Source: Bacteroidota bacterium (GTDB lineage Bacteria; Bacteroidota; Ignavibacteria; UBA10030; SZUA-254). Taken from it: 61,794 nt of DNA. The stretch is from NCBI GenBank assembly GCA_030019075.1, contig JASEHD010000002.1, forward strand, positions 1-61,794, in the 5' to 3' direction. Made by a program: the position numbers and the translations under genes. The notes below the pieces were generated by a model. The model ran no database searches and was not told the origin of the DNA. It saw nothing but the letters and a program-made list of their open reading frames with translations. Positions 7,640-53,129 of this stretch are shown here, piece by piece (the first letter of the stretch is position 1; the number at the start of each line of letters is the position of its first letter).

Positions 7640-8773
7640 TTAATTTTTCACGAACATTTTTCCGGGCAATTGTTTAACTAACCCTTTGAATTCTAAACTA
7701 AGTAGATTAACGAGAACATCAGATGTTGTTAATATTGCCGCCTCAGCAATCGAATCAATGTGGGAAGGATTTTCTGTGAGTACATCATAAATCGATCGTT
7801 CAAATAGAGTGAGAGATGGAAGTTGTTTTATTTCATCATGGTCTTTGGGTTTTATGAGGGGTTTTAGCTTTGTTGAAAGCTCTTCTAATATATCATCAAT
7901 GCTCTCTATTAATTTTGCACGCCCTTCTTTGATAAGTAAATGGCACCCGCGACTACGCTTCGAATTAACCAATCCGGGCAATGCAAATACTTCCCTGTTC
8001 TGATCTAATGCGGTATTGGCTGTAATCATTGCACCGCCATTTATATCGGTTTCGATAATTACCGTACCAAGAGATAATCCACTGATAATACGATTGCGAC
8101 GAGGGAAATTAACTGCATCGGGTTTGGCACCCATTTCATATTCACTGATAACAGCCCCACAACCGACAATTCGCTCGAATAAATTTTTATTCTCTGGAGG
8201 ATAAATAACATCCAGCCCTGATCCGATGACAGACAATGTTCGCCCGTCTGTTTTAATTGCCGCATGGTGTGCCACGGTATCGATACCGCGAGCCAAACCA
8301 CTCACGATGGTTATCCCAAGTACTGCTAATTCCTGACTTATTTTTTCTGTCATACGGACACCGTAATCGGATGGAGTGCGCGTCCCAACAATTGCAATTG
8401 CATACATATCTTTATCTGTGAACTCTCCCCGAACAAAAAGGAAAGGGGGTGAATCATAAATTTTCTTTAAGTTTTCAGGATATTGTTTATCCAAAAATGT
8501 TATAACTTTTCCCTCAACCTTATTCACCTTCGAAAGCTGCCGTTCAGCATATCTCTTTGCTTCACTATGCTTTTGACTTCTTACGAAATGAACAATCGTT
8601 GAAGCGAGTTTCCGACTAAATCCTTCCACTATCGCTATTTCCCTTATTGATGCAGTAAGTACTTCGTCGGTATTACCAAAATGCGATATGAGCATCCGCA
8701 ATCGATTTGAACCGATTCCAGGAATCTGAGACAATGTAAGAAGATCAAAAACAGAAATCACTTTTTCCCCCAT
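7640..8773 (-). CDS. dprA: DNA-processing protein DprA/Smf
   Basis: 377 aa. Rossmann-like core with GLARGIDTVAHHAAI and FPRRNRIISGLS, plus a C-terminal winged-helix-like tail. Confidence 0.88.
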   Translation of the reverse strand: MGEKVISVFDLLTLSQIPGIGSNRLRMLISHFGNTDEVLTASIREIAIVEGFSRKLASTIVHFVRSQKHSEAKRYAERQLSKVNKVEGKVITFLDKQYPENLKKIYDSPPFLFVRGEFTDKDMYAIAIVGTRTPSDYGVRMTEKISQELAVLGITIVSGLARGIDTVAHHAAIKTDGRTLSVIGSGLDVIYPPENKNLFERIVGCGAVISEYEMGAKPDAVNFPRRNRIISGLSLGTVIIETDINGGAMITANTALDQNREVFALPGLVNSKRSRGCHLLIKEGRAKLIESIDDILEELSTKLKPLIKPKDHDEIKQLPSLTLFERSIYDVLTENPSHIDSIAEAAILTTSDVLVNLLSLEFKGLVKQLPGKMFVKN

Positions 8774-8784
8774 GTTATCTCATA

Positions 8785-9060
8785 TCACTCAATTTTTACA
8801 TCAATTCCATCAACCACCGCAACAATCACTGAATGCACAGGTGCTTTTTTATCTTTGAGTACCTGCGCCGCACTCTGCCCTTCCTGAACAACGAGAACTG
8901 TGTCACCAACACCTGCATCTACCGAGTCGAGCGCCAACAAATCCCTCCCAATCAGATTTCCTTCAAGGTCAATCGGCTGTACAATCAGTATTTTATGCGG
9001 CTTTAAATGCTCATTCTTCTGTGTCGCAACGATAGTTCCAATAACTTTACTTAGTATCAT
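8785..9060 (-). CDS. EutN/CcmL-family bacterial microcompartment vertex protein (orphan)
   Basis: 91 aa. The sequence MILSKVIGTIVATQKNEHLKPHKILIVQPIDLEG...GDTVLVVQEGQSA follows the EutN/CcmL pattern. Confidence 0.72.
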   Translation of the reverse strand: MILSKVIGTIVATQKNEHLKPHKILIVQPIDLEGNLIGRDLLALDSVDAGVGDTVLVVQEGQSAAQVLKDKKAPVHSVIVAVVDGIDVKIE

Positions 9061-9069
9061 ATCATTATA

Positions 9070-10473
9070 TTAAAAATGTTTTTTGAATTGTTCGACGAGT
9101 TGTTTTGCCCGATCCATTGTTTGTGCCTCAGCAATAATACGGATAATCGGCTCAGTGTTCGACTTCCTCAGATGTACCCAAGAATCTTCAAAATCAATTT
9201 TTAAACCATCCTCAGTGTTGATGATCCCTGCTGATTCATATTTTCGTTGAATCGTTTCGAATGCTCGATCTATATCCTTCCTATGTCCGCCTGAGGTGGA
9301 TTCAAATTTTGATTTGACAATTGAATACTTTGGCAGTGACTCTTTAAATTCGGAAATTGTTCCTTGATATTCCGCAAGCTGTTGAAGGATCAATCCGATA
9401 CCAACAATTGCATCACGGGTAAAGTGAACATCAGGGAGAATAACTCCTCCGCTTCCCTCTCCACCTACAATCGCACCGACCTCTTTCATTTTCTGGGCAA
9501 CGTTTATTTCACCAACTGGTGTACGGATAACTTCAGTACCATACGATTTTGCTATAACATCGATTGCACGGGTGGTGGAGAGATTTACAACAACGTTTTG
9601 AGATTTGGGATGCTTGCCCGCCGAAGGCGGGTGAAGGATTTGGGATTTGGAATTTTGTTTTGAGAGTATGAATTTTACGACTGACGTGATGGTATATTCC
9701 TCACCGAATGGTTCGCCTTTTTCTGTGATTAAAACAAGTCGGTCAACGTCGGGGTCAACGGCAATTCCTAAATCTGCTTTTACATTTTTCACACACTTAC
9801 ATAATTCAACAAGATTTTCTGGAATTGGTTCAGGATTTCGAGTAAAGATTCCGCTTACTTCACAGTTTAGTTCTATGACTTCGCATCCTAAATCACGAAG
9901 CATCTTTGGAACGATATTACCACCAGATGCGTTGATGCAATCCACAACAATTTTAAATTTTCGATTTTTAATTTGTTCAATGTTAATATAAGGTAAACTC
10001 AGAACAGCGCCGATATGCTGCTGCATGAACGATTCGTCTGTAATATGTCGCCCGATTTTATCCCATGCAGCATAATTAAATTTTTGCCCTTCTGCAATAT
10101 TCCAGAGCTTTTGATTCTCCTCAGCATTTAGGAACATACCCGTCTGTGCGATAAATTTCAAGCCATTCCACTGGATTGGGTTATGACTTGCAGTAATAGC
10201 TATACCTCCAGCGGCTACAAGTTTTTCTACTGCAAGTGCAACTGTTGGAGTTGGTACAATCCCTAAATCGACCACATCGCAGCCTATCGAAAGGAATGTT
10301 GAAGACACGAGATTACTAATAATTCTTCCAGTAACTCGCCCATCTTGCCCGATCACAACTTTTCCATGATTGCAGAATTGTGCAAAAGCTGATGAATACT
10401 TCACAATTACATCAGGAGTGAGACTTTCACCCACGATGCCGCGGATACCTGATATGCTAAATATTAAAGACAT
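9070..10473 (-). CDS. glmM: phosphoglucosamine mutase (Bacteroidetes-type alpha-D-phosphohexomutase)
   Basis: 467 aa. N-terminus SISGIRGIVGESLTP, phosphoserine loop TASHNP, metal loop DPDVDR and sugar loop GEGSGG. Confidence 0.8.
   Translation of the reverse strand: MSLIFSISGIRGIVGESLTPDVIVKYSSAFAQFCNHGKVVIGQDGRVTGRIISNLVSSTFLSIGCDVVDLGIVPTPTVALAVEKLVAAGGIAITASHNPIQWNGLKFIAQTGMFLNAEENQKLWNIAEGQKFNYAAWDKIGRHITDESFMQQHIGAVLSLPYINIEQIKNRKFKIVVDCINASGGNIVPKMLRDLGCEVIELNCEVSGIFTRNPEPIPENLVELCKCVKNVKADLGIAVDPDVDRLVLITEKGEPFGEEYTITSVVKFILSKQNSKSQILHPPSAGKHPKSQNVVVNLSTTRAIDVIAKSYGTEVIRTPVGEINVAQKMKEVGAIVGGEGSGGVILPDVHFTRDAIVGIGLILQQLAEYQGTISEFKESLPKYSIVKSKFESTSGGHRKDIDRAFETIQRKYESAGIINTEDGLKIDFEDSWVHLRKSNTEPIIRIIAEAQTMDRAKQLVEQFKKHF
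9596..9665. repeat. palindrome plus GATTTGG heptamer words lying in-frame inside glmM
   Basis: GC hairpin CCCGCC-GAA-GGCGGG (9617..9631). It is flanked by GATTTGG words at 9602..9608, 9637..9643 and 9644..9650. The segment encodes SKSQILHPPSAGKHPKSQN. Confidence 0.7.
10397..10455. repeat. direct repeat copy 1 (functional glmM 5' end)
   Basis: The 59 nt are identical to 11097..11155 at all but 3 positions. The two copies lie exactly 700 bp apart. Confidence 0.9.
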
Positions 10474-10630
10474 ATATATTTACTTTGAAAATGTAGTAAA
10501 GAAGTTGATGAGAATCAAATAATAAAGCGAAGTGCGGAGAGCAATGAGCGGTGAAGCAGTATAATAAAATTTTGTATTTTAAGTGACGAAAGAGTACATT
10601 TAGGAAGTTTACACAAGTTAAGGAAACACT

Positions 10631-10843
10631 ATGGGAAAAGTAAAAGAGCCAGCATCCACATACATTGTGGATAAGGAAGGCAAGAAAACAGCCGTTATTC
10701 TTCCTATCGAAAAATATGAAGAGTTATTAGAAGACTTGGAAGATTTGGCAGTGATTGCTTCTCGAAAGACTGAACCAACATATGACTGGGAAGAACTAAA
10801 AAATAAATTGAAAAGGGATGGGATCCTTTCTGATAAAATATAG
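10631..10843 (+). CDS. type II antitoxin (RelB/Phd-like)
   Basis: 70 aa with an acidic C-terminal half (EKYEELLEDLEDLAVIASRK). It overlaps the downstream RelE-like toxin gene. Confidence 0.7.
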   Translation: MGKVKEPASTYIVDKEGKKTAVILPIEKYEELLEDLEDLAVIASRKTEPTYDWEELKNKLKRDGILSDKI

Positions 10844-11081
10844 GGCTTCGTTTGAAAAGGAGTTTCGGAGCATCCCAAAAGAGTTTACCGATGCTGTTGC
10901 AGTTCGCATAGATTCTCTTTCTCAAAATCCGTTTCCTGTCGGATGTAAGAAACTTACCAATGAAGAATTTTATCGAATTCGAGTTGGCAATTATCGGATT
11001 GTCTATTCGGTCGATTCAAACAGCAAGGTGATAACGATAGAAAGGATCAAACATCGAAAAGATGTGTACAGAAAACTTTGA
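10818..11081 (+). CDS. type II toxin, RelE/ParE family
   Basis: 87 aa. The sequence YRIRVGNYRIVYSVDSNSKVITIERIKHRKDVY is the classic RelE/StbE C-terminal pattern. Confidence 0.85.
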   Translation: MGSFLIKYRASFEKEFRSIPKEFTDAVAVRIDSLSQNPFPVGCKKLTNEEFYRIRVGNYRIVYSVDSNSKVITIERIKHRKDVYRKL

Positions 11082-11096
11082 CAGTGGTTAAGGAAG

Positions 11097-11155
11097 TATT
11101 TCACAATAACATCGGGAGTGAGACTTTCACCCACGATGCCGCGGATACCTGATAT
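11097..11155 (-). pseudogene. relic glmM 5' fragment (direct repeat copy 2)
   Basis: It encodes ISGIRGIVGESLTPDVIVKY on the minus strand with no start codon. The 3 differences from copy 1 all fall on third codon positions (P, V, K) and are synonymous. Confidence 0.8.
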
Positions 11156-11162
11156 ACATAAT

Positions 11163-11368
11163 GGCAGTTCCAAAAACTAATTTTTTGAATCACAAAGTTT
11201 TTACACACCTGTGTGCCTAAACACTTCGGTGTGTAGGCGCAAAGAGCACAAAGAACCCAACAAAATCCCTGCCTGAGTGCCGAACAATTCGGCAGGCAGG
11301 AATACTTTGTGAACTTTGCCCCCGGCTCGTAGAGTGGTAAAGTATTTTGGGAATTTTTTTGAACCGCC
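11163..11368. repeat. MITE-like element related to 3112..3237
   Basis: The left end is GGCAGTTCCAAAAACT. The reverse complement of the right end is GGCGGTTCAAAAAAA. Internal hairpins are ACAC-TTCG-GTGT and CCTGCCTG...CAGGCAGG. CACAAAG/CTTTGTG words are present. Confidence 0.65.
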
Positions 11369-11675
11369 CATTAATGACATGTAGTTATTGAATATTGGAT
11401 TAATGGAATAATGGAATGATGGATATAAATTAGTGAAGATGAAGTTGATAGGGAAGAATAAACCTTAAAAACAACAAACAAAATGGATTCTTGTATCTCT
11501 ACAATTATTTCCGTAACTTTTATTAAGATTTTACTAAGAAAATAGAGACAATATTTTCAGCAGATGACGACAAAATCAGTAAAAGAATTTTGTATTGCGT
11601 TATTTTTGTCAAGCTTGCACTTTGGCATTCATGATTAACTTGAATAAACATACATTTACAAGAGGAAAATGAGAT

Positions 11676-11882
11676 ATGTTAAACACACTTCGTGCAATTG
11701 TTCGAGAAGGAAAAATTGAATTACTTGAAAAAATGGATATCCCTGAGGGTACAAACGTTCTGGTGACTTTGATGCAAGAAAACGATGAAACTCAATATTG
11801 GGTAAAAGCAAGCCAGAAATCTTTGGATAAAATTTGGAATAACACCGAAGACGATGTATATGCACAATTACTTAAAGTATGA
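11676..11882 (+). CDS. putative antitoxin (DUF104/AF2212-like N-terminal swapped-hairpin type)
   Basis: 68 aa. The sequence LRAIVREGKIELLEKMDIPEGTNVLVTL resembles small antitoxins. It overlaps the downstream PemK-like ORF. Confidence 0.5.
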   Translation: MLNTLRAIVREGKIELLEKMDIPEGTNVLVTLMQENDETQYWVKASQKSLDKIWNNTEDDVYAQLLKV

Positions 11883-12117
11883 TGTTCTTCTTCTCCGTTA
11901 TCCCTTCGCAGATTTATCTGATTCCAAGATTAGACCTGCCGTCCTAATCAGCACTCAACATATTTCCGAAGATATCTTTGTTGTGCCTTTGACCAGTAGA
12001 ACAACTTCTTTTTTATCTGGTGAATTCGTTTTGGATAAATGGAATGTTGGCAAATTATTCTCTTCTGATGCAAAAAGATTGGAAGATTCATTACGTAATT
12101 GGTTAGGACTTCATTAA
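11854..12117 (+). CDS. PemK/MazF-like toxin, unusually short (possibly degenerate)
   Basis: DVLLLRYPFADLSDSKIRPAVLIS...IFVVPLTS matches the MazF/PemK N-terminal core. The C-terminal half looks about 25 aa shorter than typical family members. Confidence 0.5.
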   Translation: MYMHNYLKYDVLLLRYPFADLSDSKIRPAVLISTQHISEDIFVVPLTSRTTSFLSGEFVLDKWNVGKLFSSDAKRLEDSLRNWLGLH

Positions 12118-27792: not shown

Positions 27793-30291
27793 ATGAAGAC
27801 AATCATACAAGTTTTGGCTCTTTTGTACCTAGGCAGTTTCCTCGCAGTCGCACAGACATTCGTCAGAAGCCCGGTGCAGGATTTTCTCATTAGTGAGGAA
27901 AATACACCCTCAACTTTCGTTCAGAGCAACGTCAGAATATTTCCCAAGTACACATCCGGGTTTCTTGCTGCGTGGCAGGACGATCGGGATGGTGACCCCG
28001 GCTCTTACGCACAAGAATTTGATGGCAGCGGTAATCCGGTTAGTGGAAATTTCCCGCTTTTTTCCAATGAGACAATCAGATTTACTAAGGACGGTTCTTT
28101 TCTTGTCCTCGGTTCTCGAGTGGTAAGTCACTCTCCTTGGTTCGATAATATGTTTGTTGTTGATGGCAGGTTCTATGATTCTTCCAAGCAGCAGTTGAAG
28201 ACGGCGAGCCTCGCTTCCGCAAGGTTACCGTGGTGCGGGACCGGCTACCTCGGAGTGGATTATCACTGCGCCAGTACCTCCGATAAGTACCTTTTCCTCA
28301 TGCGAGACGATGGACGTATCTCGTTGACTAAATACGACTGTCATGGAAACATCGTGTACCAATTTCCCGACTCGATGAGCAACTTAAGAATCGCAGCGAC
28401 TGCCTCGATTACTTCAAATGGTCAGAACGATTATATGCTGGCGTGGTTCCAGATAGACCAGTATTATCAACGACCAGTCGGTTACTTTGCAACCTTTTTT
28501 GATCGCCGCGATTCGGTGACCGCAGCAGGTCAGCCCCTGGGTTTTCCGATAGACACAACGGAGACCTATTTTGGAATACATATATTTCCTCTGCTAAAGA
28601 CAATCTCGATCTCTGATACCGCTTACCAAGTCTTTATCATCAACCGTGATTCGGCTATCATGTACTTCCGCAAGTTCGACCGGAAGGGAAATCAACTCGA
28701 CAACGTTCAGTGCCTTCCGATCCCTCATACGACAGGTGGTAGAATTCATATCCTCAACTTTTCTGTGTCTACCATGAAAAACAATTCGTTCGATATTCTA
28801 CTGACCAACGCCGAGTGGCATAACAACGGTACCACATACTTCAACGCATTGTACACCTTCAATGCAGACGGAATTCCAATTGGGGATATTCGGATCGATA
28901 CGACTCATTACTTCCGCCTAGGGGATAGCTTTATCAAAACTTCCGACAGTACATTTCAGATTGGCACACATGATGCCACAGATGTTTATCTCACAACACT
29001 CTTGAACCTGACTCCCATCGGAAGCATCAAGTTAAACGACGATCAATCCGGTAGCAACGAGATTGCCCCACTTGTCACGCCCGTTGATGATAGTCGTTTC
29101 TTCGTGATCTGGCAGGATGAGAGAAAAATATCCGGACAGATGGTAAATATCTATGGGACGAATGTAGATAGACAAATAACACTGGAGGGAAAAACGAGTG
29201 AGTTCTTCTCTGATCGAACGTGTGTAAATTTGTGGCTGAGAGGAGGAGTACCAAGCCAGGATACGCTCGGGCTCACGATCTACGATGGTAATTGGGGTGT
29301 TATCAGGCGAGACACGGTAGCAGTGGGACAACCCTGCGGCGGTACATCGGGTGAGGTAAAAATCCTTACCGACAGCACGTTCCTCGTATTATATCGAACA
29401 GATCACGGCAATGCCCGGCTGAAGCTTTTCAACAAGAGTGGCATTCAAATCGACGAGACGACAGTCGCAGCAAAAGATTACGTGTACAACCTTAAGATCT
29501 CCGTCAACGATCCAAACTCGTTTTGGGTTCACTTTGGTAATAAGGTACGGTTGTACTCAAACCAACTTCAACCGCTGTCGGATGCTATTGCCATGAATGC
29601 TGCACTTCACCTTGAAGACCAGAAATTCCTATTCATCACATTTGAAGAATACAGCCAGTCATACTACGGTATTATCGTTTCAACTGCTGGCGATACGCTC
29701 AAGAGCAAGTTCCTGCTCGCAAGTAGACCCGATGAGATCACTTACGGCAAATTGACGCCACGATATTTCCTTGTCGTGTTTAGAAAGTCGAACACGATCT
29801 ATGCGAAAGCATTCTCGAACGACGGAATTGCAGACCGGGACTCCATTGTCATTCATCGTTCCACGAGTGGTAACAAGAAAAATGGTACTTACTCAATACG
29901 TGATAATAAAGTATTTTTTGCCTGGTCTGAAGTTCGACCTCCAGTCAAAGGATACAGCATTTTCGGAAGCATCGTGGACGTATCAACCCTCGTGGGCGTG
30001 AAAGAAGCACCTACCATCAACGTTCCGTATGACTTCTCCCTTGAGCAGAACTATCCCAATCCCTTCAATCCATTTACAATTATCAAATATCAATTGCCAA
30101 TTGACAATTGGGTAACACTGAAAGTGTACAACGTGCTTGGGCAAGAAGTCGTAACGCTGGTTGATGAGTTTCAGGATGCAGGATACAAATCGGTTGAGTG
30201 GGATGCAAGTGGGATGGGGAGTGGAATATATTTCTATAAATTAACTGCTGGAAAATATATTTCCATAAAGAAGATGATTTTAATTCGATAG
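27793..30291 (+). CDS. secreted protein with T9SS C-terminal sorting domain, function unknown
   Basis: 832 aa. Signal MKTIIQVLALLYLGSFLAVAQ. Recurring W-x-D-x-R motifs (AAWQDDRDGD, VIWQDERKISG). CTD: [20 protein letters not shown]...IYFYKL. Confidence 0.8.
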   Translation: MKTIIQVLALLYLGSFLAVAQTFVRSPVQDFLISEENTPSTFVQSNVRIFPKYTSGFLAAWQDDRDGDPGSYAQEFDGSGNPVSGNFPLFSNETIRFTKDGSFLVLGSRVVSHSPWFDNMFVVDGRFYDSSKQQLKTASLASARLPWCGTGYLGVDYHCASTSDKYLFLMRDDGRISLTKYDCHGNIVYQFPDSMSNLRIAATASITSNGQNDYMLAWFQIDQYYQRPVGYFATFFDRRDSVTAAGQPLGFPIDTTETYFGIHIFPLLKTISISDTAYQVFIINRDSAIMYFRKFDRKGNQLDNVQCLPIPHTTGGRIHILNFSVSTMKNNSFDILLTNAEWHNNGTTYFNALYTFNADGIPIGDIRIDTTHYFRLGDSFIKTSDSTFQIGTHDATDVYLTTLLNLTPIGSIKLNDDQSGSNEIAPLVTPVDDSRFFVIWQDERKISGQMVNIYGTNVDRQITLEGKTSEFFSDRTCVNLWLRGGVPSQDTLGLTIYDGNWGVIRRDTVAVGQPCGGTSGEVKILTDSTFLVLYRTDHGNARLKLFNKSGIQIDETTVAAKDYVYNLKISVNDPNSFWVHFGNKVRLYSNQLQPLSDAIAMNAALHLEDQKFLFITFEEYSQSYYGIIVSTAGDTLKSKFLLASRPDEITYGKLTPRYFLVVFRKSNTIYAKAFSNDGIADRDSIVIHRSTSGNKKNGTYSIRDNKVFFAWSEVRPPVKGYSIFGSIVDVSTLVGVKEAPTINVPYDFSLEQNYPNPFNPFTIIKYQLPIDNWVTLKVYNVLGQEVVTLVDEFQDAGYKSVEWDASGMGSGIYFYKLTAGKYISIKKMILIR

Positions 30292-49365: not shown

Positions 49366-49402
49366 TATAAATAAGCAAAAAGTTTATTTAATTTTCAAGA
49401 AA
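49366..49402. repeat. 37-bp perfect direct repeat copy 1 (immediately upstream of the tsaD start)
   Basis: TATAAATAAGCAAAAAGTTTATTTAATTTTCAAGAAA is identical to 50014..50050. Confidence 0.92.
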
Positions 49403-49550: not shown

Positions 49551-49937
49551 TTATTTTAGATCCATTCTTTTTATATGTACAAGCCTGCGCCCAAGCATAT
49601 CAACCCAGGCTTGACACTGTTCTAATACAATATAACCTACTAACGGTTCATATTTTCCATTTTCTGGTTTCATGTCGATAAACAACACTTCTGTATATAT
49701 CGGTCTGAATCCTTCTATTTGTAATTTTACCGGCCCACATATCTCGCCCATCTGAGGCGTTTGATTAGCCAATTCCAATTCTATCCGATCGACTATTTCT
49801 ATATCGCCCAATTTGTTTTTCCACGCCGATGGTAAAACCATGTAAGATGCTCCAGTATCAACCAAAGCATCACATGAAATTCGATATTCAGGATTATTAG
49901 CATTTTTTATTTCTACAGGTGTAACAATTCGTCCCAT
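49551..49937 (-). CDS. retropepsin-like (clan AA) aspartic protease
   Basis: 128 aa. The active-site context is ALVDTGASYMVLP. Its size is typical of single-domain bacterial/archaeal retropepsin-like proteins. Confidence 0.72.
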   Translation of the reverse strand: MGRIVTPVEIKNANNPEYRISCDALVDTGASYMVLPSAWKNKLGDIEIVDRIELELANQTPQMGEICGPVKLQIEGFRPIYTEVLFIDMKPENGKYEPLVGYIVLEQCQAWVDMLGRRLVHIKRMDLK

Positions 49938-50013: not shown

Positions 50014-50050
50014 TATAAATAAGCAAAAAGTTTATTTAATTTTCAAGAAA
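50014..50050. repeat. 37-bp perfect direct repeat copy 2
   Basis: It is identical to 49366..49402 and lies 648 bp away, upstream of the protease gene. Confidence 0.92.
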
Positions 50051-50054
50051 AGAA

Positions 50055-50101
50055 GTGCGACTCACCTTCAAGTATTACCGACACCGGGAGGTGAGTCGCA
50101 C
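50055..50101 (-). terminator. hairpin terminator downstream of hicA
   Basis: The perfect 12-bp stem GTGCGACTCACC/GGTGAGTCGCAC has a 23-nt loop. On the minus strand it is followed by TTCTTTTCTTGAAAATT. Confidence 0.5.
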
Positions 50102-50169: not shown

Positions 50170-50352
50170 TTAAGTTTTATCTTTCAGCGTTTTCATAATA
50201 TGCTTTGCAAGGTTTTCATTTATCTCGCTGTGGCGTGGAATTGGTTGGCATACTTTGGTTGCCTGATTCTGATACCAGTCGTGTTTTCCCCCATGTCTTA
50301 TAAAAACACAACCCATTTGTTCTAATTGTCTGATTAAATCTTTCCTCTTCAA
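50170..50352 (-). CDS. hicA: type II toxin HicA
   Basis: 60 aa. The family pattern is LIRQLEQMGCVFIRHGGKHDWY. It has a TTG start that overlaps the hicB stop (TTGA). Confidence 0.85.
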   Translation of the reverse strand: MKRKDLIRQLEQMGCVFIRHGGKHDWYQNQATKVCQPIPRHSEINENLAKHIMKTLKDKT

Positions 50353-50540
50353 GCTACTTCCAGTTCAGCTATTTTCCGAACACAAGGTATTGCACCGCTT
50401 GTCAATTCTTTATATAAATCTTTTAAATGTTCTTTCAATTCATTCAAGGTTACACCTTGAGTTATATAGTCGGGATATTCTTCTAAATACCCTAACCACA
50501 TATCACCGTCCTGCCAATATGAAAACTTTTTAGTTTCCAT
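50349..50540 (-). CDS. hicB: type II antitoxin HicB (short form)
   Basis: The ATG at 50540 gives METKKFSYWQDGDMWLGYLEEYPDYITQGVTLNELKEHLKD, a HicB/UPF0150-like fold pattern. It is coupled to hicA. Confidence 0.7.
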   Translation of the reverse strand: METKKFSYWQDGDMWLGYLEEYPDYITQGVTLNELKEHLKDLYKELTSGAIPCVRKIAELEVA

Positions 50541-50630
50541 AATAATATCCTTTTTATATCTGCTTGATGATGAAGTTTTATAAAATAATATATTCCATAA
50601 ATTTCTTAAAATCAAATCTATCAATCATTT

Positions 50631-50681
50631 AACCTTGCGAAGTTTCCCACCAGAAGTAACATGCTAAACCTTCGCAAGGTT
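50631..50681. other. 12-bp-stem hairpin between the nuclease gene and hicB
   Basis: AACCTTGCGAAG (50631..50642) and CTTCGCAAGGTT (50670..50681) form a perfect stem with a 27-nt loop. Confidence 0.6.
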
Positions 50682-50819
50682 CATTGGGCAACTATAGTGT
50701 ACATCATTTATCAGACAAACTTCCCACTTCTATTTGTTTGGTTGAAGGGCTGATGAACTGTAAAGCTCACCAGCTTGCAATGGAGCGAAGCGGAATTACC
50801 AATCCGAGTTGTTGCGGTG

Positions 50820-51839
50820 TTAGATTGCTCCCTTTGGAATAAGAGCAAGAAAAAATGATACTGCCCCATCAACACCAGATTCGTAGGGGTGGCTACGCTT
50901 TGGGGCTAATAAGTTCATATAGGCAGCAAAGTGCCACTTCTCACCCTCCCTCCTGAAGAGCTTGTATCGAATCCCGTCCGAGACAATAAATCGGTCGCAT
51001 GCAGGATATGACTTTGCATAACTGATAGCTTGATCATCAGCGTAGCGCAAACCATCCCATAAACGCTTAGATTCGATTATTGCAAGCGGCTTGCTTTCTT
51101 TAGAGTACGGTGTGTCAAATAGTGCAATATCGATGTTATTCCATTCAATCTTTACTTTTTGTTCAGCCCACCCCAAAGATGTAAGCAGAGGCACGATCAG
51201 GAATGTTCGTATTTCATGCTCGCCGACATCTGAACCATGGAAGCTATACCACTTTGCGACTCGTCGAAGGCGCCAAATCGTGTTTGCAATGAGTTCAGCG
51301 TTTTGCCCCGGTAAGCCTTCAATAATTAGCGAATCGATAAGTTGATCGACGCTTAGTTCTTCCGGTTCAATCGGAATAGGGGTCGAGGCAACTTGGTGCT
51401 CACTCGACCAAACTTTGTTCACTTCACCAACCGCTTGATCATGGTTGACGCCAACAAGGGTTCCACGGCGAAGACCACTAATAATAGTTTGCGACATTGG
51501 TCTCTTCCAGTTTATTCTTCGGCAATGTCGAAGATCCCATCCGTCTACGTCACCGAAGACATTCTCAAAAAGATAACCAGACGTAATTTCTCCAACCGCA
51601 AGAATTTCCCAGTTGTGACCGCTAGGACGCTTTAATACTACAAGATCACCTTTGGCAAGCTCCTCTGCTAGGGTCTTGATAAATGGACGATAAGCCAAAC
51701 TATCAGGATTGTTATAAGCGTCTTGATTCGAGAAGTATTTGCCTTCTGAGCCAGGGCCAACGAGAATCACTCCGAACTTTAGGAAGACATCCGAATAATC
51801 GCGGCTGCCATCGCCTGCTGCTATCTGCCAAATCTTCAT
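50820..51839 (-). CDS. predicted restriction-type nuclease: N-terminal small beta-barrel reader-like domain fused to an HsdR_N-like PD-(D/E)xK domain
   Basis: 339 aa. The C-terminal half, EHEIRTFLIVPLLTSLGWAEQKVKIEWNNIDIALFD...PLAIIESKRL...QAISYA...RFIVSDGIRYKLF, fits the D...E-x-K nuclease pattern. The N-terminal part is MKIWQIAAGDG...GDLVVLKR...ILAVGEITSGY...RHCRRINW. The function is inferred. Confidence 0.5.
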   Translation of the reverse strand: MKIWQIAAGDGSRDYSDVFLKFGVILVGPGSEGKYFSNQDAYNNPDSLAYRPFIKTLAEELAKGDLVVLKRPSGHNWEILAVGEITSGYLFENVFGDVDGWDLRHCRRINWKRPMSQTIISGLRRGTLVGVNHDQAVGEVNKVWSSEHQVASTPIPIEPEELSVDQLIDSLIIEGLPGQNAELIANTIWRLRRVAKWYSFHGSDVGEHEIRTFLIVPLLTSLGWAEQKVKIEWNNIDIALFDTPYSKESKPLAIIESKRLWDGLRYADDQAISYAKSYPACDRFIVSDGIRYKLFRREGEKWHFAAYMNLLAPKRSHPYESGVDGAVSFFLALIPKGAI

Positions 51840-51955
51840 TTGATAATCCTTTGCAATCTAATGTCTGCGTTAAGGATACTGTGCGGCTTTATCGCACAAC
51901 ATCCCTTTGGATAATGTTCGGCACGCTCACAAACCTGAGACGTAGAATCCTTGCG

Positions 51956-52696
51956 TCACTCGTCCGGAACGGTAAGACTTGTCCCGTCTTTGAAGATAAT
52001 CATTCGAGGATCCCAGACCACCTTTAACTTGTCATCTTCCAGTTCAGCAAGCTTGCGATCGTTATTGTTTCCGATAGTGAACCTTACAGAACGTGAGTCC
52101 ATCCAGTTTACAGTTTGCCCTGCTTTTATGGTGTTGTAGTTGGAAATTAGGAACCCAGAAATTTCATCGCCGAACAAGTCTCTAATAGAGATGTAGCCCT
52201 TTACACCGGCAATGTCTTTGTCAGTGTTGTTCTTGTAGCCGAAGATCACTTCAAGGTTCTCGTTCCATATTATTCCGTTGGATGATCGTTCGGCTTTGAT
52301 CTTCTTAGATACCAGCGTAACTGTGATTGCTTCCCGCATCGGTTTCATAGCGGCCTCTCGCTCGCCTTGAAGCTTGGCTTTCACCGCGTGTTGTTTGGCT
52401 TCTTCAATAGCGGCATCCGCTTTGAACTTGCGTTGTTCCTCGATAGCTTTGCCGAGGGTCATGCCCTCTGGGATTCCTAGGTTTTCTTTTCCACCAAACA
52501 ATCCACCAAGTTTTGCGCCTACAGTATGGCGTATGATGTAGCCAGCCACCAGTTCTCGCTCTTCGGGTGTGAGTTTCTCGATCGCGGGCTTGATTCTCTC
52601 GATTTTATCGAGTTCACGCGGTAGGGGTGTTTCCTTGGGGCCACTACATGCGGCCAGAATGATCGCGCACAGCAGGATGGTCAAGTGCGTGCACAT
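51956..52696 (-). CDS. lipoprotein of unknown function
   Basis: The ATG at 52696 gives MCTHLTILLCAIILAACSG (lipobox LAAC). A coiled-coil-like middle is followed by a beta-rich C-terminus. Its G+C is higher than in neighbouring genes. Confidence 0.6.
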   Translation of the reverse strand: MCTHLTILLCAIILAACSGPKETPLPRELDKIERIKPAIEKLTPEERELVAGYIIRHTVGAKLGGLFGGKENLGIPEGMTLGKAIEEQRKFKADAAIEEAKQHAVKAKLQGEREAAMKPMREAITVTLVSKKIKAERSSNGIIWNENLEVIFGYKNNTDKDIAGVKGYISIRDLFGDEISGFLISNYNTIKAGQTVNWMDSRSVRFTIGNNNDRKLAELEDDKLKVVWDPRMIIFKDGTSLTVPDE

Positions 52697-53129
52697 GTAT
52701 TGCTCCAAGGTTTGTTGGTTAGGAAGACGCACTATTATGGGTTGTTGATTTGCTCATTGACGATTATGCTTGCTCAGACAGCTTGTCATATGACACCGAA
52801 TTATTAATTATACCGCTGAATAGCTTACTAACACATCTGCTAGTGGTCGAAGACTCTCTACGAGACCGTTCTACCTACGGTATCTTAGATACGAAACGTA
52901 GATGGGTCGATTCGTCGAGTGGACAAGTCGGTGGTTTGTGTGTTAGATTTATGTCAAACCCCGTTTTCATTCTTAAACCGTTTTAAACTTAGCATAAATA
53001 TATCAGGAAAAATATACAAAATCAAATCCGCAGTTATTGTATATTTTCCTAAAATATTCTATTTTCAATCTATGATTGTCATAGACAATAATAATTTGAA
53101 TCCATTATTCCTTATTACGCGAGTATATT

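Follow-up and report, generated by a model that had tools for sequence, protein, structure and literature searches.

Predicted type IV restriction enzymes in which an EVE domain is joined to a PD-(D/E)XK nuclease have been catalogued in 'a substantial variety', in a census that also describes EVE proteins as partners of Type I restriction-modification (R-M) systems and of DUF1156-DUF499-SNF2 systems, the DUF1156 (COG1743)-DUF499-SWI2/SNF2 operon being linked to EVE proteins (Bell, Wolf and Koonin 2020, PMC7641849). EVE-HNH enzymes and YenY4I, an EVE-DUF3427-PD-(D/E)XK protein, were characterised by Lutz et al. 2019 (PMC6765204); YenY4I shows cleavage dependent on 5-methylcytosine (5mC) or 5-hydroxymethylcytosine (5hmC) in the presence of Mn2+, and weak restriction of phage T4gt (PMC6765204). 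Here, we analysed a 61,794-bp contig of a Bacteroidota bacterium metagenome-assembled genome (MAG; NCBI), which is referred to as the window in its full length, and in it an islet of two adjacent genes, gene 1 and gene 2 (Table 1). We conclude that the islet probably consists of two mobile cargo genes that are independent of each other and came to lie side by side in an insertion-prone gap, gene 1 encoding a predicted single-chain type IV-like nuclease and gene 2 an unrelated lipoprotein.

Gene 1 encodes an uncharacterised but well-formed protein, in which a PUA-superfamily reader is followed by a PD-(D/E)xK nuclease domain, and which is predicted to be a type IV restriction enzyme of an already known kind. 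An earlier note on this DNA had put it forward as a candidate single-chain type IV-like nuclease. The domain folds behind that proposal were supported, and a single-chain architecture of reader and nuclease had been catalogued before (PMC7641849).

Predicted reader and nuclease domains of gene 1

Both open reading frames (ORFs) and the 116-nt gap between them were recovered as previously described, together with every peptide motif that had been quoted from them. An AlphaFold (AF2) model of gene 1, built from a 43-member alignment (A1), had a predicted local distance difference test (pLDDT) score of 92.5 and a predicted template modelling score (pTM) of 0.86. The 43 proteins span bacterial phyla and one archaeon at a mean column identity of 57%, and a superfamily alignment of 63 proteins, reaching down to 26% identity, was used alongside. 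The model divides into an N-terminal beta-barrel, a helical linker and a C-terminal nuclease core (Table 1).

Searched against the PDB with Foldseek, the top match of gene 1 was the EVE-HNH enzyme VcaM4I (6yex, E 2.4e-4), with a probability of 1.00 to its EVE domain. The N-terminal domain also matched about 40 YTH domains, which are readers of N6-methyladenine/adenosine (m6A), at TMt 0.50-0.56, as well as PH1033 (1wmm, TMt 0.58) and the EVE protein 2gbs. The suggestion that the N-terminal half is a small beta-barrel module of the reader type was therefore borne out at the level of the superfamily, as a PUA-superfamily, EVE/YTH-like barrel. Across the 63 proteins, W111 of this module is invariant, and W4, R13, D65, Y89 and H105 are conserved in at least 90%.

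The C-terminal half follows the core order helix-strand-strand-strand-helix-strand in the AF2 model (helix 207-221, strands 229-233, 236-240 and 253-257, helix 267-277, strand 283-287), and Foldseek matched it to HsdR of EcoR124I (2w00, E 0.02). HSDR_N and HSDR_N_2 profiles matched 31 and 26 of the 43 members, respectively (E below 0.1; best 3.9e-6), and two relatives exceeded the Pfam HSDR_N/HSDR_N_2 cut-offs (P0289 with 29.7 bits, P0362 with 30.6 bits). D237, E256 and K258 are invariant among the 63 proteins, while E207, E209, Q270 and Y274 are conserved in at least 90%. A QxxxY motif after the ExK strand is a feature of the RecB family and of EcoR124I HsdR; in gene 1 it reads Q270-A-I-S-Y274, and Q270 and Y274 are invariant in the close family. 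Model, Foldseek match, invariant residues and HSDR_N matches thus agree with the previous assignment of this half to an HsdR_N-type PD-(D/E)xK fold with intact catalytic motifs. On sequence grounds, the conservation pattern of the two domains is consistent with an active nuclease linked to a ligand pocket.

When scanned directly against Pfam, NCBIfam and PADLOC, the gene 1 and gene 2 proteins yielded sub-threshold matches only. Gene 1 belongs to DUF8426 by an indirect route, in that it falls into the same 90%-identity cluster as P0001, a protein with a precomputed match to PF28530.

Like the catalogued EVE-PD(D/E)XK proteins, gene 1 places an N-terminal PUA-superfamily reader and a C-terminal PD-(D/E)xK domain on one short polypeptide, and its family is likewise sporadic and defence-linked, with relatives found beside Type I R-M and DUF1156-DUF499-SNF2 systems. 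Unlike them, its N-terminal domain is too divergent for the Pfam EVE model and structurally at least as close to YTH. The likeness is one of architecture, and DUF8426 now has a Pfam entry of its own, to which no function is assigned. VcaM4I and TspA15I (6yex; PMC7897488, PMC6765204) share with gene 1 the order of N-terminal reader and C-terminal nuclease, typically without an adjoining methyltransferase, but their nuclease is of the HNH type instead of the HsdR_N-type PD-(D/E)xK; at 9-11% identity and an overall TM-score of ~0.3, only the reader domains correspond. YenY4I also combines a PUA-superfamily reader with a PD-(D/E)xK nuclease, but it is ~600 aa long with an additional DUF3427 middle and a DUF3883-type nuclease, whereas gene 1 has 339 aa, a helical linker and an HsdR_N-type nuclease. 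By Pfam, gene 1 falls into the same PD-(D/E)xK subfamily as the N-terminal nuclease of HsdR (EcoR124I, 2w00), with the D...ExK and QxxxY motifs in common; it differs from HsdR in having neither a helicase/translocase motor nor HsdM/HsdS partners, and a PUA-like reader would do the targeting instead.

Among PADLOC profiles, the candidate system PDC-S02 corresponds to gene 1 in the core of the N-terminal module (profile positions ~60-125) and has a profile length of 308-346, near that of gene 1. The match covers residues 54-113 of gene 1 (E 5.4e-4), and 9 of 10 relatives match in the same region (residues ~45-120, best E 4.5e-9); mostly ~60-70 residues align while the C-terminal halves are unmatched, and PDC-S02 is itself a candidate only. 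The mad2 profile (MADS) weakly aligned residues 232-301 of gene 1, in the nuclease core, with no more than positions 38-104 of its 492 (E 5e-4). A profile search with the N-terminal domain retrieved 637 representative clusters among 1.84 billion proteins, and the best 150 matches mostly had the same architecture of 330-380 aa. Fusions of the module to other effectors had been looked for in this search; as it turned out, the partial PDC-S02 matches are the sole pointer to portability.

Distribution and genomic contexts of gene 1 relatives

A search of a large protein collection returned 271 homologs of gene 1 at E ≤ 0.001; the 120 matches listed were mostly full-length, 48-85% identical and mostly carried PF28530 (DUF8426, a recent Pfam accession). 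Relatives were found in only 98 of 185,579 species genomes, scattered over many bacterial phyla, and archaeal relatives occur in four lineages (Bathyarchaeia, Methanosarcinales, Nanoarchaeota and Hydrothermarchaeota). The closest relative belongs to a Nitrospirota MAG (MBI4825012.1; 91% protein and 86.7% DNA identity), and a Syntrophomonas (Bacillota) MAG has a copy with 79.7% nucleotide identity. Coding-sequence comparisons show purifying selection on both islet genes, dN/dS being 0.075-0.107 in gene 1 and 0.047-0.145 in gene 2.

Unbiased clustering of the neighbours at 82 gene 1 loci revealed no universal partner, and relatives of 78-91% identity on long contigs are solitary genes in unrelated contexts. 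Relatives of 78-81% identity occur in mobile or defence regions of three kinds: with a MobA/MobL relaxase, ArdC, a DEAD helicase and an Mrr_N protein; with a WYL/WCX regulator, DUF2779 and AddAB-like genes; or with GmrSD, an AAA_15/21 ATPase, TraT, transposases and a DUF4258 toxin. The Nitrospirota relative lies among housekeeping genes, flanked by toxin-antitoxin pairs of the HepT/MNT and PemK types.

Distant relatives (31-38% identity) adjoin HsdM in 8 loci and HsdR in 6. Five of them have a DUF1156 methyltransferase-like gene on one side and a DUF499 gene on the other, and an SNF2 helicase is also present at three of these five loci; upstream gaps in the DUF1156-DUF499 loci measure 6-491 nt, and downstream gaps tens of nt in four of the five. 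Since EVE proteins have been described as partners of exactly those systems (PMC7641849), gene 1 could be an accessory reader-nuclease subunit of a larger machine, Type I R-M or DUF1156-DUF499-SNF2, that is orphaned here or acts in trans. We regard this as unlikely. Among the 17 relatives with at least 45% identity, only one (L008, 59%) is near an HsdR-like gene, none is beside HsdM or DUF1156-DUF499, and no adjoining methyltransferase recurs; those at 78-91% on long contigs stand alone. Furthermore, tblastn found no HsdM, HsdR, DUF1156, DUF499 or SNF2 in the 61.8-kb window, in a search that left other methyltransferase classes aside, and gene 1 has a complete set of catalytic motifs of its own. 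On these searches, gene 1 appears to present the type IV combination of reader and nuclease without a cognate methyltransferase.

A toxin-antitoxin module lies directly downstream of a gene 1 homolog in three independent loci: the hicB-like/hicA module of the window (50170-50624), a 76-aa gene with PemK in the Nitrospirota MAG (L151, 9169-9710) and a HicB-like gene in a further locus (L002, 7248-7538). These neighbours belong to different families and may reflect island context alone. Also, two contigs have a gene for the surface-exclusion lipoprotein TraT (L149, 4366-4875; L150, 2075-2797) on the upstream side of a gene 1 homolog of 78% identity; the TraT family differs from gene 2, and it therefore lends no support to a link between nuclease and lipoprotein.

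Gene 2, base composition and the insertion site

Gene 2 had been read as a lipoprotein with a coiled-coil-like middle and a beta-rich tail; its lipoprotein nature, a long helix and the beta-rich C-terminus were upheld. Its N-terminal sequence, M-C-T-H-L-T-I-L-L-C-A-I-I-L-A-A-C17-S-G, holds a signal peptide that ends in the lipobox L-A-A-C17, and Cys17 is invariant in 35 homologs. In the AF2 model (pLDDT 82), the signal peptide is followed by a helical region, which includes one long helix (81-123), and then by an Ig-like beta-sandwich of seven strands at the C-terminus (124-242). Translation could also begin at a GTG at 52732, giving 258 aa, but homologs favour the ATG. By Foldseek, the sandwich is similar to ApaG/DUF525 and to Ig-like domains of glycoside hydrolase family 2 (GH2) enzymes and, in a viral library, gene 2 resembles uncharacterised phage proteins (M4SRV0, E 9.7e-9); it also matches phrog_31085, of unknown function, over nearly its full length (E 4.7e-6). 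We found 269 homologs at E ≤ 0.001, and the 120 listed are 61-82% identical, the self-match apart; named ones come from Undibacterium and Novilysobacter. One homolog immediately follows a CI-like repressor in an IMG/VR contig (L140), another has a tail-completion gene two genes away (L082), and tyrosine integrases lie upstream in four loci. A 308-aa protein encoded after the gene 2 homologs of L082-L086 was examined as a possible truncated relative of gene 1 and found unrelated. Our guess from these contexts is that gene 2 encodes an envelope lipoprotein that travels as cargo of phages or integrative elements and may serve lysogenic conversion or superinfection exclusion.

The two genes lie on the same strand, both are raised in G+C, and the coding strand carries no terminator-like site between them, an arrangement that would suit a new two-gene defence system in which infection would be sensed or gated by the envelope lipoprotein, with the nuclease as effector. 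Their lack of co-occurrence elsewhere largely refutes such a system, which we consider very improbable. No gene 2 homolog was found by tblastn at any of 81 gene 1 loci, over up to 10 kb on each side where contig ends permitted, and no gene 1 homolog by tblastn and a family hidden Markov model at any of 57 gene 2 loci, 34 of which have at least 1.2 kb of sequence downstream and 29 at least 1.2 kb upstream. The Nitrospirota relative, with 91% identity the closest to gene 1, has no neighbour of the gene 2 type. At the DNA level, blastn of the islet against ~150 loci gave homology over 50786-51862 for gene 1 and 51947-52800 for gene 2, with no match bridging the spacer, and the DNA shared with the Nitrospirota ortholog is confined to 50820-51852, that is, the ORF and 13 nt. 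The homology units thus stop on either side of the spacer, and the G+C contents at third codon positions (GC3) of the two genes are unlike. Scans for promoters and terminators returned no more sites than were seen in shuffled sequence; Bacteroidota promoters are not represented in their models. The pairing of nuclease and lipoprotein that the earlier note had raised was accordingly abandoned; the adjacency is a coincidence of insertion and not a system.

The G+C content of the window is 39.9%, with a mean over 52 ORFs of 0.398 (standard deviation 0.034). A sliding profile (500 nt) rises near 50750 and falls near 52750-53000 between flanks of 0.33-0.37, and its peak of 0.502 is reached by a single 500-nt window. 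Gene 1 has a G+C content of 0.458 (z 1.8) and a GC3 of 0.418 (z 1.3), gene 2 of 0.484 (z 2.5) and 0.544 (z 3.6). The skew had been put at about 50% against 37%: it is real and its direction was right, but its size was overstated, with the islet at ~46% and the window at 40%. One further gene of the window is a GC3 outlier, that for an 832-aa protein with a type IX secretion system (T9SS) type A sorting domain (GC3 0.507, z 2.9), and it may be another acquired gene.

The view that the block is compositionally foreign and horizontally acquired was sustained by these statistics and by the relatives, in which the G+C content of the genes is stable across hosts: 0.45-0.51 in close gene 1 relatives with host flanks from 0.41 to 0.58, and 0.47-0.54 in gene 2 relatives with hosts at ~0.47-0.65. 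It could be objected that the rise is ordinary gene-to-gene variation and that both genes are native, given that the z-scores of gene 1 are modest and that another gene of the window reaches similar composition values. This is hardly credible, since the identity of gene 1 to the Nitrospirota and Syntrophomonas copies across phyla already refutes a native origin, and the constant G+C of gene 1 in differing hosts, the GC3 of gene 2 and the sharp steps of the profile at both islet edges also speak against it. Against the Nitrospirota copy, gene 1 has a dS of 0.63, and the transfer is therefore recent only when compared with the split of the phyla.

The 3.7 kb between tsaD and a gene for a GT-C-like membrane glycosyltransferase is a mosaic of an aspartyl protease, a separate, AT-rich hicA module, gene 1 and gene 2. 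The islet lies 1.4 kb from tsaD. A perfect 37-nt direct repeat, of which none is expected by chance, brackets the protease ORF immediately upstream of the tsaD start, and the whole looks like a 648-bp insertion that duplicated the 5' region of tsaD. At the edges of the islet itself we found no tRNA gene and no convincing flanking direct repeat, the edge pairs D3 and D4 being short and imperfect. The island-like context of hicBA and a protease cassette held in part: hicA was confirmed, the hicB-like ORF has no Pfam or NCBIfam match, whether taken whole or read from its internal Met (50540), and is so labelled by size and by its position with a 4-nt overlap with hicA, and the protease scores below curated thresholds. 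Two inverted repeats, one between gene 1 and the hicB-like ORF and one just after hicA, may be terminators or operators. Integron attC sites were considered for the same hairpins and dismissed, as the R''/R' core motifs are absent on inspection by eye.

Table 1. Coordinates of the islet, the gene 1 domains and other features of the window
Feature	Position	Strand	Description
Gene 1	50820..51839	minus	339 aa; MDI6765309.1, QME52_00530; annotated hypothetical; DUF8426 protein
Gene 1 residues 1-130	51450..51839	minus	PUA-superfamily (EVE/YTH-like) beta-barrel; putative modified-base reader
Gene 1 residues 131-205	51225..51449	minus	Helical linker: helices 134-146, 164-173, 178-204 (DSSP on AF2 model)
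Gene 1 residues 206-339	50823..51224	minus	HsdR_N-type PD-(D/E)xK core: E207/E209, D237, E256-x-K258, Q270xxxY274
Gene 2	51956..52696	minus	246 aa from ATG; MDI6765310.1, QME52_00535; lipoprotein
Spacer between gene 1 and gene 2	51840..51955		116 nt; core without homology coverage 51863-51946 (blastn)
Elevated-G+C block	50750..53000		~0.45-0.50; window 0.40, immediate flanks 0.33-0.37 (composition profile, per-gene statistics)
hicA	50170..50352	minus	HicA_toxin 1.9e-11; Pfam 44.3 bits, cut-off 27
hicB-like ORF	50349..50624	minus	Probable start 50540; G+C 0.293, most AT-rich ORF of the window
Protease ORF	49551..49937	minus	128-aa clan-AA aspartyl protease; below curated thresholds
Direct repeat	49366-49402 / 50014-50050		37 nt, perfect
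Inverted repeat	50626-50686		20-nt arms, 85% complementary
Inverted repeat	50055-50101		13-nt arms, perfect
T9SS sorting-domain gene	27793..30291	plus	832-aa protein; GC3 outlier

Proposed mode of action and significance

Several points weigh against the reading of gene 1 as a modification-dependent nuclease and of gene 2 as independent phage cargo. The fold matches of the N-terminal domain are moderate (TM ~0.5-0.58), and they are silent on which base is read and on whether the substrate is DNA or RNA. Profiles detect the domain poorly, with the EVE profile (PF01878) matching 2 of the 43 members at E 0.05 only and the YTH profile none of the 43; a family sequence profile run against the PDB found nothing, and a single-protein PDB search nothing useful. 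Gene 1 itself stays under the Pfam HSDR_N cut-off (15.2 against 25.1 bits), and PADLOC, with partial matches only, classed it as no known system; its relatives showed the same partial pattern. No paper in the literature searched uses the name DUF8426. Neither gene was found in cultured-phage records, and the role of gene 2 is a guess from genomic context. Plasmid matches were distant and uninformative, among them an unannotated Cupriavidus record. Lastly, four Dehalococcoidia genomes (L014, L017, L018 and L019; ~8600-12000) carry a gene 1 homolog (~40-42% identity) in a common neighbourhood of the housekeeping type. In three of these genomes, L014, L017 and L019, the homolog has a tpiA-like gene on its upstream side; downstream comes a miaA-like gene, which begins after 10-12 nt in L014 and L019 and overlaps the homolog in L018.

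The Dehalococcoidia homologs close to miaA raise the alternative that gene 1 acts on RNA or in housekeeping, for instance as a nuclease that reads a modified tRNA or rRNA nucleoside. Indeed, YTH domains, readers of m6A in RNA, make up the best-populated group of fold matches, and the mean column identity of the 43 proteins is unusually high for a defence gene. We nevertheless rate this alternative as quite unlikely: the distribution of gene 1 is sporadic, most of its contexts are mobile elements or defence islands, its nuclease domain is of the DNA-cleaving HsdR_N/RecB type, and the four Dehalococcoidia loci come from related genomes and represent roughly one event.

For the type IV-like nuclease that we favour, we propose the following mode of action, which we infer from folds and conserved residues. 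Acting against phages, the EVE/YTH-like barrel of gene 1 would bind a modified base in incoming DNA, the base probably being flipped into an aromatic pocket by analogy with SRA and EVE domains; W4, Y89, H105 and W111 are candidate pocket residues. Base binding would then recruit or license the PD-(D/E)xK domain (D237, E256, K258 and QxxxY), and DNA nearby would be cleaved in a modification-dependent manner. No cognate methyltransferase would be needed, because host DNA, in this proposal, lacks the recognised mark. Gene 2 would act independently of gene 1, in a surface function of the lysogenic-conversion or superinfection-exclusion type.

A bolder and doubtful idea, to which we give little weight, is that DUF8426 proteins are functional, widely mobile nucleases whose divergent YTH/EVE-like reader sees an N6-modified adenine in place of the 5-substituted cytosines that are usually read. 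Its target might be m6A in DNA or, less likely, RNA marks of the N6-isopentenyladenosine (i6A) or N6-threonylcarbamoyladenosine (t6A) type. The products of miaA and tsaD both modify N6 of A37 in tRNA, and the sole basis for the i6A/t6A idea is that a homolog lies near miaA in Dehalococcoidia and the islet close to tsaD. If true, the idea would mean a new specificity class for type IV restriction, on a 1-kb cassette that crosses phylum and domain boundaries.

The negative result on co-occurrence is of use in its own right, as it keeps the pairing of lipoprotein and nuclease off lists of candidate defence systems. Modification-dependent nucleases matter as a defence against phages with modified genomes and as reagents for epigenetic mapping. 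DUF8426 is compact and strongly conserved; its catalytic site is complete and its putative reader divergent, and to identify the base that it reads would be a small yet tangible advance. What remains of interest in this islet is the specificity of the DUF8426 reader and the mobility of the family across domains, between bacteria and archaea.

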